From Betaproteobacteria bacterium (GTDB lineage Bacteria; Pseudomonadota; Gammaproteobacteria; Burkholderiales; SG8-39): DNA of 64,000 bases. Below, one piece after another: positions 50,287-54,638 of this stretch. The position numbers and the translations under genes were made by a program. The stretch covers positions 2,467-66,466 of the forward strand of contig JBQTJF010000082.1 of the NCBI GenBank assembly GCA_052387375.1, read 5' to 3'. The stretch's first letter is position 1. Each line of letters begins with the position of its first letter. The notes under the pieces are model-generated. The model ran no database searches. It had not been told where the DNA came from and saw nothing but the letters and a program-made list of their open reading frames with translations.

Positions 50287-54009
<3,723 letters not shown>

Positions 54010-54013
54010 CGCT

Positions 54014-54056
54014 TCCAGAAACGAAAAGGCCCGTTCAGCTTGCGCAGAAACGGGCC
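54014..54056 (-). terminator. Intrinsic-terminator-like hairpin in the metH 5' leader
   Basis: RNA reads GGCCCGUU-(13 nt loop)-AACGGGCC followed by UUUUCGUUUCU, ending about 15 nt before the metH ATG. Confidence 0.5.
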
Positions 54057-54106
54057 TCGGCGACGCGTCTCTTTAGCGGCATTTTTCAAGCGCCCGCAAG
54101 CTGAAC
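54033..54106 (-). promoter_or_regulatory. Candidate antiterminator: perfect 12-nt inverted repeat competing with the metH leader terminator
   Basis: GUUCAGCUUGCG (from 54106-54095) is complementary to CGCAAGCUGAAC (from 54044-54033). The latter covers the terminator loop and the first 3 nt of its 3' stem arm. Confidence 0.45.
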
Positions 54107-54203
54107 ATCAAATCGGCGCCGACGCGCGGGGCGTCCGGTGCGGCAGTGGGAGTCTGCCCACAGCGCCTCTGGCTGTCAATCGCGCTGCCTATAATCCCGG
54201 CGG

Positions 54204-54638
54204 ATGAGCGAATTCCGTTCCATCGTCGCCGTTTTCCCGTGCCAGGTGCACTGGGGAGACTGCGATCCCGCCGGAATCATCTTCTACCCGACCTACTTCC
54301 GCTGGATGGACGCGGCGAGCTGGGCGTTTCTCGAGGCGGTCGGCTACGGCGCGAAGCGCATGCGCGCCGAGCACCGGGCCATGCCGCTCGTCTCGGCGGA
54401 GTGCCGTTTCCTCGCCCCGGCATCGCAGGGCGACCGCTGCGAGGTGAGGTCGCGCATGGCGCGCTTCGGCGGCAAGTCCTTCGTCGTCGCGCACGAGATC
54501 GTGCGCACCAACGACGGCGCCTCGCTCGCCGCAGGCAGCGAGGCCCGCGTCTGGGGGCGATTCGTCGAAGGGCCGGGCTCGCCCCTCAAGGGCGAGACCA
54601 TCCCCGAGTCGCTCAAGGCGCTGTTTCGCGGCGTCTAG
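54204..54638 (+). CDS. Acyl-CoA thioesterase, 4HBT/YbgC-like hotdog fold
   Basis: 144 aa. Sequence VHWGDCDPAGIIFYPTYFRWMD is typical of the 4HBT thioesterase family. Confidence 0.83.
   Translation: MSEFRSIVAVFPCQVHWGDCDPAGIIFYPTYFRWMDAASWAFLEAVGYGAKRMRAEHRAMPLVSAECRFLAPASQGDRCEVRSRMARFGGKSFVVAHEIVRTNDGASLAAGSEARVWGRFVEGPGSPLKGETIPESLKALFRGV

Follow-up and report, generated by a model that had tools for sequence, protein, structure and literature searches.

SAM-II is a class of riboswitches for S-adenosylmethionine (SAM), also known as SAM_alpha (Rfam RF00521) and first as the metA motif of Corbino et al. 2005, with a crystal structure under 2QWY. SAM-II elements lie upstream of methionine genes, mainly in alpha-proteobacteria and in a few other proteobacteria including Bordetella bronchiseptica, many of them with terminators (PMC1273637). 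Barrick and Breaker 2007 noted SAM-II terminators among both alpha- and beta-proteobacteria, a mechanism that lacked experimental proof (PMC2258182). Leyn et al. 2014 reported SAM_alpha solely in Rhizobiales and Rhodobacterales. For beta-proteobacteria, they introduced a “novel metXZ element” that precedes metXW or metZ and whose alignment (Fig. S2) includes B. bronchiseptica BB4554. In the same work, metH of Comamonadaceae was placed under a riboswitch for S-adenosylhomocysteine (SAH), and metH was listed neither as a SAM_alpha nor as a metXZ target (PMC4239095). Khoo et al. 2012 located Bp2_Cand287 ahead of metZ/metX and proposed that it acts in cis, and expression of a Burkholderia homologue was detected by reverse-transcription PCR (RT-PCR) (PMC3521395). 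Here, we analyze the leader of metH, encoding cobalamin-dependent methionine synthase, in a stretch of 64,000 nucleotides (the window) from contig JBQTJF010000082.1 of a Betaproteobacteria bacterium. In all likelihood, this leader is a SAM-II riboswitch of a beta-proteobacterial subtype that acts as a transcriptional OFF switch.

A preliminary description of the leader had proposed a riboswitch-like arrangement with mutually exclusive terminator and antiterminator helices, could not assign a class while leaning towards SAH, and suggested an Rfam scan for SAH, cobalamin and SAM classes, folding of the minus strand and a covariation check on metH leaders. Rfam covariance models were run on the whole 64-kb window at gathering score and on 53900-54300 at E <= 10. 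SAM-II was the sole family to reach its gathering score in the window, with a minus-strand match at 54129-54052 (39.0 bits vs a gathering score of 36; E 2.9e-5) covering the full model (positions 1-79 of 79). The permissive scan of 53900-54300 added just three sub-threshold “sRNA” families and no match at E <= 10 to SAH (RF01057), cobalamin (RF00174), SAM-I (RF00162), SAM-V or SAM/SAH, and these classes were rejected. The preliminary description was right in kind and wrong in its leaning as to class. The assignment is supported by the family match, the conserved anatomy, covariation of P1 and the terminator, conserved antiterminator complementarity and the thermodynamic preference of the ligand-free fold.

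Window bases were mapped to SAM-II using the crystal-structure description in PMC3303485, in which U10-U12 of L1 lie in the major groove of P2b, U20 pairs with A46 and U21 with A45, and the adenine of SAM, recognised by the unpaired U44, stacks between U21 and G22. In the P2 5' strand of the window, U54099, U54098 and G54097 correspond to U20, U21 and G22, and the P2 3' strand supplies C43, with U54075 as U44 and A54074/A54073 as A45/A46 (Table 1). All SAM-contact bases (U10-12, U20, U21, G22, U44, A45, A46) are present and invariant in 12 diverse copies, an invariance that represents conservation of the ligand core and no proof of pairing. Two alignments were used: A1 contains 17 metH leaders, and A2 compares beta-type with canonical copies. 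None of the four P2b pairs varies in A2, nor does U44 or the L1 U-run; AUUU of L1 is likewise invariant there, with its flanking G kept in at least 90% of sequences, and A1 has no variation in the whole of GAUUUG. The 6-bp P1 pairs in 97-100% of cells with a closing pair that varies (C-G, G-U, U-A, U-G), and A2 contains two compensatory pairs between the beta and canonical types (C-G/U-A and C-G/G-C). Jointly, P1 and P2b pair in 98.3% of the cells of A2, a value reached by 0/500 shuffles. Two metH leaders, L017 (1379-1410) and L018 (1358-1404), have an extra hairpin inside L3, lying between P1's 3' strand and AAAC/AAAU...GCUAAAG, and the Burkholderia and Ralstonia metX leaders in the alignment of Leyn et al. 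contain an L3 insert of the same kind; large insertions are evidently tolerated in L3.

The loci of relatives were fetched by the first 300 MetH residues, a selection blind to the RNA, which yielded 80 metH loci. The closest relatives are uncultured Burkholderiales metagenome-assembled genomes (MAGs) with 73-88% identity over the MetH query. Of the 20 closest loci, 10 have an RF00521 hit at the equivalent site before metH, with orthologous leaders scoring 37-46 bits, and further hits before metH occur in one Rhodocyclales, one Nitrosomonas and three Gemmatimonadales loci, while a motif scan of the 19 closest Burkholderiales loci located the core ahead of metH in 16. Neither an SAH nor a cobalamin riboswitch was found at gathering score in any of the 80 metH loci.

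Canonical-type SAM-II copies of 43-52 bits lie directly upstream of metH in the Gemmatimonadales MAGs (L051 1327-1399, L057 1331-1404, L068 1327-1401, and also L041 420-493) and are almost identical in sequence to the Nitrosomonas copy in L049. These copies place SAM-II with metH in a phylum beyond Proteobacteria and Bacteroidetes and hint at possible horizontal transfer. In the ~150 nt upstream of metH (locus ~1350-1500) of three of the close relatives (L007, L013 and L016), the promoter is retained and the aptamer is gone; what is left in L007 is the terminator with AAGCUGAAC and a short piece of the aptamer, L013 and L016 have lost both aptamer and terminator, and L016 carries three tandem GATTGACAC boxes upstream.

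The terminator proposed earlier at about 15 nt before the metH ATG (54009) is present as a hairpin with a U-tract, the hairpin ending 18 nt and the U-tract 7 nt from the start codon. The hairpin alone folds with -21.0 kcal/mol. Its stem is paired in 95.5% of cells across the 17 leaders with 3 pairs changed on both sides, and a U-run follows the hairpin in 20/20 leaders. P1 and the terminator taken together (A1) are 96.6% paired with 4 two-sided pair changes, which 0/500 column shuffles match. With a GC-rich stem, an immediate U-run and covariation, the hairpin has the features of an intrinsic terminator and is predicted to terminate transcription.

The preliminary description had further pointed to a perfect 12-nt segment complementary to the terminator loop and the start of its 3' arm. 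This is confirmed: GUUCAGCUUGCG (54106-54095) is perfectly complementary to CGCAAGCUGAAC (54044-54033), 50 nt downstream, and the resulting helix is the longest perfect one in the spacer, 12 bp or more occurring in 3/2000 dinucleotide-preserving shuffles (~0.0015). The 12-bp helix alone folds with -19.5 kcal/mol and P1 alone with -9.9 kcal/mol. The segment is, however, not the separate expression-platform element it had been taken for, but the 5' strand of the ligand-binding pseudoknot helix P2, with ligand-contact bases in it. The 9-bp core GUUCAGCUU/AAGCUGAAC is paired in 15-17 of the 17 leaders (a slid partner in <=44%). Two changes in it are compensatory (U-A to C-G), and there are also one wobble and three single mismatches. 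On the other side of the helix, AAGCUGA(A/G)C in the terminator loop hardly varies among the 17 leaders, whereas the loop's 5' half differs in both sequence and length; this loop conservation is a better argument for the antiterminator than covariation.

Complementarity of this kind was also seen in metagenomic leaders. A metagenome scan with a pattern limited to the P1/L1/P2b core returned 120 loci. In 107 distinct leaders, the 100 nt that follow were searched for the longest perfect complement to the loop plus P2b strand, which averaged 5.77 as against 4.88 and 5.12 in two controls (Wilcoxon p 5e-5 and 0.004), and complements of >=8 nt were present in 17/107 leaders vs 0 and 6 in the controls. 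In about a quarter of the beta-type leaders, the loop or 3' arm of the terminator contains (CGC)AAGCUG. The shared-strand antiterminator design is recurrent, not universal.

In the window leader, the minimum free energy (MFE) structure, which represents the ligand-free fold, is the antiterminator. Here, the 12-bp helix is extended by pairing of the P1 5' strand with GGGCC of the terminator 3' arm, and nested inside it, AGAGACG (54072-54066) pairs with CGUUUCU (54052-54046) of the 5' arm; with both extra pairings, both terminator arms are occupied. In growing transcripts from the predicted start, the antiterminator is the MFE structure from a 3' end at 54036 through the U-tract. When the two P2 strands were blocked as a mimic of the ligand-bound state, P1 and the terminator formed in 20/20 leaders. 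As proposed in the preliminary description, terminator and antiterminator are mutually exclusive.

From these features, we infer SAM binding, the transcription start, actual termination and kinetic control as parts of one scheme. Transcription would begin from TTGACA-N17-CAGACT at ~54144 and produce an aptamer of P1, L1 GAUUUG and the pseudoknot P2, the latter formed by GUUCAGCUU with the adjoining GCG (54106-54095, in the P1 loop) and the tail GC-U-AAAG-AGAC (54077-54067). At high SAM, the ligand would occupy the triplex of P2b and L1, where the unpaired U54075 would read its adenine, and lock P1 and P2, so that the hairpin at 54056-54028 and the U-tract form, transcription stops 7-18 nt upstream of the metH ATG and metH is OFF. 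At low SAM, the P2 5' strand would be a free hairpin loop that pairs over 12 bp with CGCAAGCUGAAC once this is transcribed; the P1 5' strand would take GGGCC of the 3' arm and AGAGACG would take CGUUUCU of the 5' arm, and with both terminator arms engaged, RNA polymerase would read into metH. Most likely, metH is therefore repressed by SAM-stabilised termination, and SAM-dependent repression is favoured over SAH-dependent activation. More tentatively, and with rather less than even confidence, we propose that in beta-type SAM-II the ligand-contact strand CAGCUUGCG (U20/U21/G22) is itself the antiterminator and invades the loop and the 3' arm, the 5' arm being paired by the P2 3' strand in a four-strand exchange between pseudoknot and terminator.

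A number of observations speak against the reading as a SAM-II OFF switch. The RF00521 score is only 3 bits over the gathering cut-off, which 6/16 copies of the metH clade and 14/20 of a metagenome sample of beta-type copies do not reach, the aptamer has been lost in L007, L013 and L016, and no ligand-binding experiment on a beta-type aptamer was found in the literature searched. The candidate P2a, GUUC (54106-54103) with GA(G)AC (54071-54067), is bulged and only 3-4 bp long, and a comparison of cognate and non-cognate P2a duplex energies in 26 diverse sequences gave no support (p 0.65-0.94), because the helix is too short and the tails too GC-rich; P2a is strongly covarying in alpha-proteobacterial SAM-II and plain in canonical copies such as L041. 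As for the antiterminator, L005, L014 and L019 each have a single core mismatch, the outer GCG/CGC pairs of the 12-mer hold in just 6-12/17 relatives, and covariation in the 17 close leaders is not significant (36/500 shuffles), the core being conserved but unable to covary because the aptamer strand is invariant. In the suggested comparison of metH leaders, the terminator covaries and the antiterminator core is conserved. Covariation of the loop extension with the following terminator bases in 26 metagenomic leaders is marginal (p ~0.05). The equilibrium MFE retains the terminator in 8/17 relatives, so the switch is probably kinetic, and folding of the whole 201-nt leader is unexceptional (z = -0.8), a z-score that is uninformative.

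Among the alternatives, the one that fares best, although we regard it as unlikely, is a SAM-II riboswitch with a conventional antiterminator, in which the tail AGAGACG (54072-54066) pairs with the 5' arm CGUUUCU and the 12-mer is secondary or a by-product, or in which control is exerted by Rho or at translation. The tail/5'-arm helix is indeed present in the MFE structure, but both helices are nested and co-form in the window. The Rhodocyclales-type metH leaders L024, L031 and L076, read directly, are without AAGCUGAAC, yet their tail GCGAGCG is complementary to the terminator 5' arm CGUUCGC. AAGCU occurs in the terminator region of just the quarter of beta-type leaders mentioned above, whereas the near-invariance of AAGCUGA(A/G)C in the 17 leaders next to variable loop bases is hard to explain without a pairing role, and the excess of complementarity in the 107 leaders has statistical support.

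Considerably less probable is a constitutive attenuator or decaying remnant, where the 12-mer would have no regulatory role. The unremarkable overall folding energy and the three relatives without the aptamer, of which L007 keeps only the terminator, would fit such decay. Against this, aptamer core, terminator and complementarity are kept in 16/19 relatives whose 300 N-terminal MetH residues are 73-88% identical to those of the window, and a helix of such length arises by chance in ~0.15% of shuffles. We give marginally less credence still to a riboswitch for another ligand of the methionine cycle, either SAH or a beta-type variant of altered specificity. SAH riboswitches are reported upstream of metH in Comamonadaceae (PMC4239095), and both the near-threshold RF00521 score and the unsupported P2a leave room for a changed ligand, but no RF01057 or other SAM/SAH-class match exists at E <= 10 in 53900-54300, none of the 80 metH loci has an SAH riboswitch, the SAH-like AGAGGCGCUG sits in a non-conserved promoter spacer, all SAM-contact bases of SAM-II are invariant, and a bound state that forms a terminator suits end-product repression and not activation by SAH. 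Finally, a trans-acting small RNA (sRNA) gene on the plus strand, in line with the RF02424 (Bp2_287) model, its plus-strand match at 54024-54136 (E 2.2e-5) and an RT-PCR-detected Burkholderia homologue (PMC3521395), was rejected as highly improbable on its score (31 bits vs gathering 70) and on strand features, since on the plus strand the hairpin has an A-run before it and no U-run after it, the conserved promoter, U-tract and SAM-II model all fit the minus strand, and Khoo et al. themselves proposed a cis-acting element upstream of metZ/metX (PMC3521395).

The beta-type core of the SAM-II riboswitch favoured here for metH is found in front of other genes in the metagenomic loci. As first-ORF (open reading frame) calling downstream is noisy in high-GC DNA, only clusters confirmed by tblastn or Pfam were used. 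The downstream gene encoded a MetX-like hydrolase in 33 loci, a Cys/Met pyridoxal phosphate enzyme (MetZ/MetY) in 24, MetH or a MetH-like homocysteine methyltransferase in five, an NMT1-type binding protein in five, MetA in three, a sulfate-type binding protein in two, and MetK and a sulfite reductase in one each. With five metH-type genes among these, metH is a minority target. Loci L129, L172, L125 and L181 have the beta-type core before genes for MetK (SAM synthetase), the sulfite-reductase hemoprotein, and NMT1-type and sulfate-type periplasmic binding proteins, and such targets extend the beta-type regulon to SAM synthesis and sulfur assimilation.

Table 1. Features of the metH leader and its surroundings in the window (minus-strand features are written as read on the metH strand)
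Feature	Position	Strand	Remarks
metH, cobalamin-dependent methionine synthase, proposed regulated gene	50287-54009	-	1240-aa ORF, five MetH Pfam domains
Intergenic spacer, 194 nt	54010-54203		Between metH and the divergent 4HBT thioesterase gene
U-tract UUUUCGUUUCU	54017-54027	-	7 U in 11 nt
Terminator 3' arm AACGGGCC	54028-54035	-	8-bp stem, covariation
Antiterminator 3' strand CGCAAGCUGAAC	54033-54044	-	3' part of loop and first 3 nt of terminator 3' arm
Terminator-loop segment CGCAAGCUG	54036-54044	-	Part of loop outside both arms
Terminator loop, 13 nt	54036-54048	-	Read from sequence
Terminator 5' arm GGCCCGUU	54049-54056	-	8-bp stem, covariation
P2 3' strand GC-U-AAAG + AGAC	54067-54077	-	GCUAAAG (54077-54071) invariant; AGAC candidate P2a partner of GUUC
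L3 linker UGAAAAAUGCC	54078-54088	-	Rfam alignment; A-rich, conserved in relatives
P1 3' strand GGCGCU	54089-54094	-	Rfam alignment, covariation
P2 5' strand GUUCAGCUUGCG, the 12-mer of the preliminary description	54095-54106	-	Also antiterminator 5' strand
L1 GAUUUGAU	54107-54114	-	GAUUUG = 54114-54109; UUU 54112-54110 = triplex-forming U10-U12
P1 5' strand GGCGCC	54115-54120	-	Rfam alignment, covariation
5' hairpin GACGC-N5-GCGUC abutting P1	54121-54135	-	Seen only in the window, L001 and L005
-10-like CAGACT	54151-54156	-	17-nt spacing from TTGACA; matches 3/6 positions of the -10 consensus
-35-like TTGACA of putative metH promoter	54174-54179	-	Read from sequence; promoter function inferred
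4HBT thioesterase, divergent from metH	54204-54638	+	Pfam

The spacer of 194 nt agrees with the ~190 nt given in the preliminary description, and a Pfam search identified all five MetH domains in the metH ORF (E 1e-120 to 5e-21). In the relatives' metH leaders, TTGACA, a spacing of ~17 nt and CAGACT or CAGAAT are conserved, and transcription of the leader probably starts near 54144. The -35 had been recognised before, one base off its true site at 54179-54174, and it does place the SAH-like AGAGGCGCUG (54170-54161, minus strand) outside the transcript, this segment being the spacer between -35 and -10, which is not conserved among relatives. A simple promoter/terminator scan of the leader listed neither the metH promoter nor the terminator, since neither a -10 box with 3 of 6 matches nor a loop of 13 nt passes its thresholds, which makes the result uninformative.

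The further GC hairpins of the preliminary description, GACGC-N5-GCGUC and the palindrome GACGCGUC (54069-54062, minus strand), both exist, but neither is conserved among the relatives and both were rejected as functional parts. In relatives other than L001 and L005, P1 comes directly after the promoter with no upstream hairpin, the hairpin being a lineage-specific insertion. Accordingly, the distance from the predicted start to P1 is a few nt in most relatives and ~24 nt in the window because of the inserted hairpin.

An inverted repeat, GTGGG-CAGACT-CCCAC (54146-54161, minus strand), flanks the metH -10 box and is kept in most relatives, including the riboswitch-less L007, L013 and L016, and absent from L010 and L019. 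Its function could be that of an operator at which a protein adds a second layer of control, or it may be mere promoter context. On the other strand, a perfect TATAAT (54190-54195, plus strand) lies 8 nt upstream of the ATG of the 4HBT thioesterase gene (54204) with no Shine-Dalgarno sequence in between, so the mRNA of this gene is probably leaderless. The TATAAT box (GATTATAAG/GATTATAGG on the metH strand) and the short spacing (~6-11 nt) are kept in relatives.

This same beta-type RNA has three published descriptions, under the names SAM-II, Bp2_Cand287 (RF02424) and “metXZ element”. All six metXZ blocks of Fig. S2 (GCGCC, GAUUUG, GCUUGCG, GGCGC, AAAU.. and GCUAAAG) are found in the window at 54122-54062; some text rows of that figure (Bordetella) seemed concatenated with others and were left out of the comparison. 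In a local scan, RF02424 (Bp2_Cand287_SIPHT) matched the plus strand at 31.4 bits, and its consensus is the reverse complement of a beta-type SAM-II with terminator, which makes it look as if this family duplicates the SAM-II leaders of metZ/metX on the wrong strand. The gathering score of RF00521 is passed by 10/16 copies of the metH clade and by 6/20 metagenomic beta-type cores, and the repeated “discoveries” are explained by how few beta-type copies reach this cut-off.

The type of regulator is already known, and metH is a little-documented gene context for it. In this uncultured clade of soil and groundwater Burkholderiales, metH would be under SAM feedback through SAM-II, and not under the SAH riboswitch or MetR of other beta-proteobacteria. 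The analysis adds an unusual target gene, an explicit strand-exchange model of the expression platform, which offers a concrete pairing scheme for a SAM-II aptamer driving a terminator where Barrick and Breaker (2007) noted that experimental proof was lacking, and a curation issue, as beta-type SAM-II lies close to the RF00521 threshold, has been described again under the name metXZ and is duplicated in Rfam as an sRNA family on the opposite strand. It leaves the understanding of riboswitches unchanged, and its value lies in annotation and the design of experiments. If the four-strand exchange is true, it would be the first defined transcriptional expression platform for SAM-II, would unite SAM-II, Bp2_287/RF02424 and the metXZ element, and would bring metH, metK and sulfur-assimilation genes of Burkholderiales, as well as metH of Gemmatimonadales, into the regulon.

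Compared with SAM-II as described, the metH leader matches the model over its full length, with the P1 hairpin, the U-rich L1 and, in P2b, UU and G opposite C-U-AA, including the unpaired U that reads the adenine of SAM. Again as in many alpha- and beta-proteobacterial representatives, the aptamer is placed in the 5' leader of a gene of the methionine pathway and has an intrinsic terminator after it. The metH leader differs in its beta-type P1 (GCGCC/GGCGC vs the canonical GUGGC/GCCAC), its longer P1 loop and a short, irregular P2a without covariation support. Furthermore, metH is absent from the SAM_alpha regulon as listed for Proteobacteria, with metY, metA, metX, metC, hom and metW (PMC4239095), and the structurally studied metX example is translational, acting via the Shine-Dalgarno sequence, whereas the metH leader has a terminator.

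The metXZ element shares with the metH leader a proposed pseudoknot and a terminator with U-tract; its authors raised the speculative idea of an antiterminator role for blocks 3 and 4, and Nmul_A1905 carries the same AAGCUGAAC terminator segment as the window. That element was, however, defined upstream of metXW/metZ, while the window copy precedes metH and is recognised by RF00521. In beta- and gamma-proteobacteria, the SAH riboswitch (RF01057) likewise sits in the leaders of methionine-cycle genes (ahcY/metF/metH), but it has another fold and the opposite logic, SAH turning expression on, and the metH leader shows no sequence or structure match to it. As for RF02424, its reverse-complemented consensus contains GCGUCGAUUUGAU-UUCAGCUUGCG-GACGC and GCUAA followed by the terminator, although its match in the window lies on the strand opposite to the riboswitch, promoter and U-tract.

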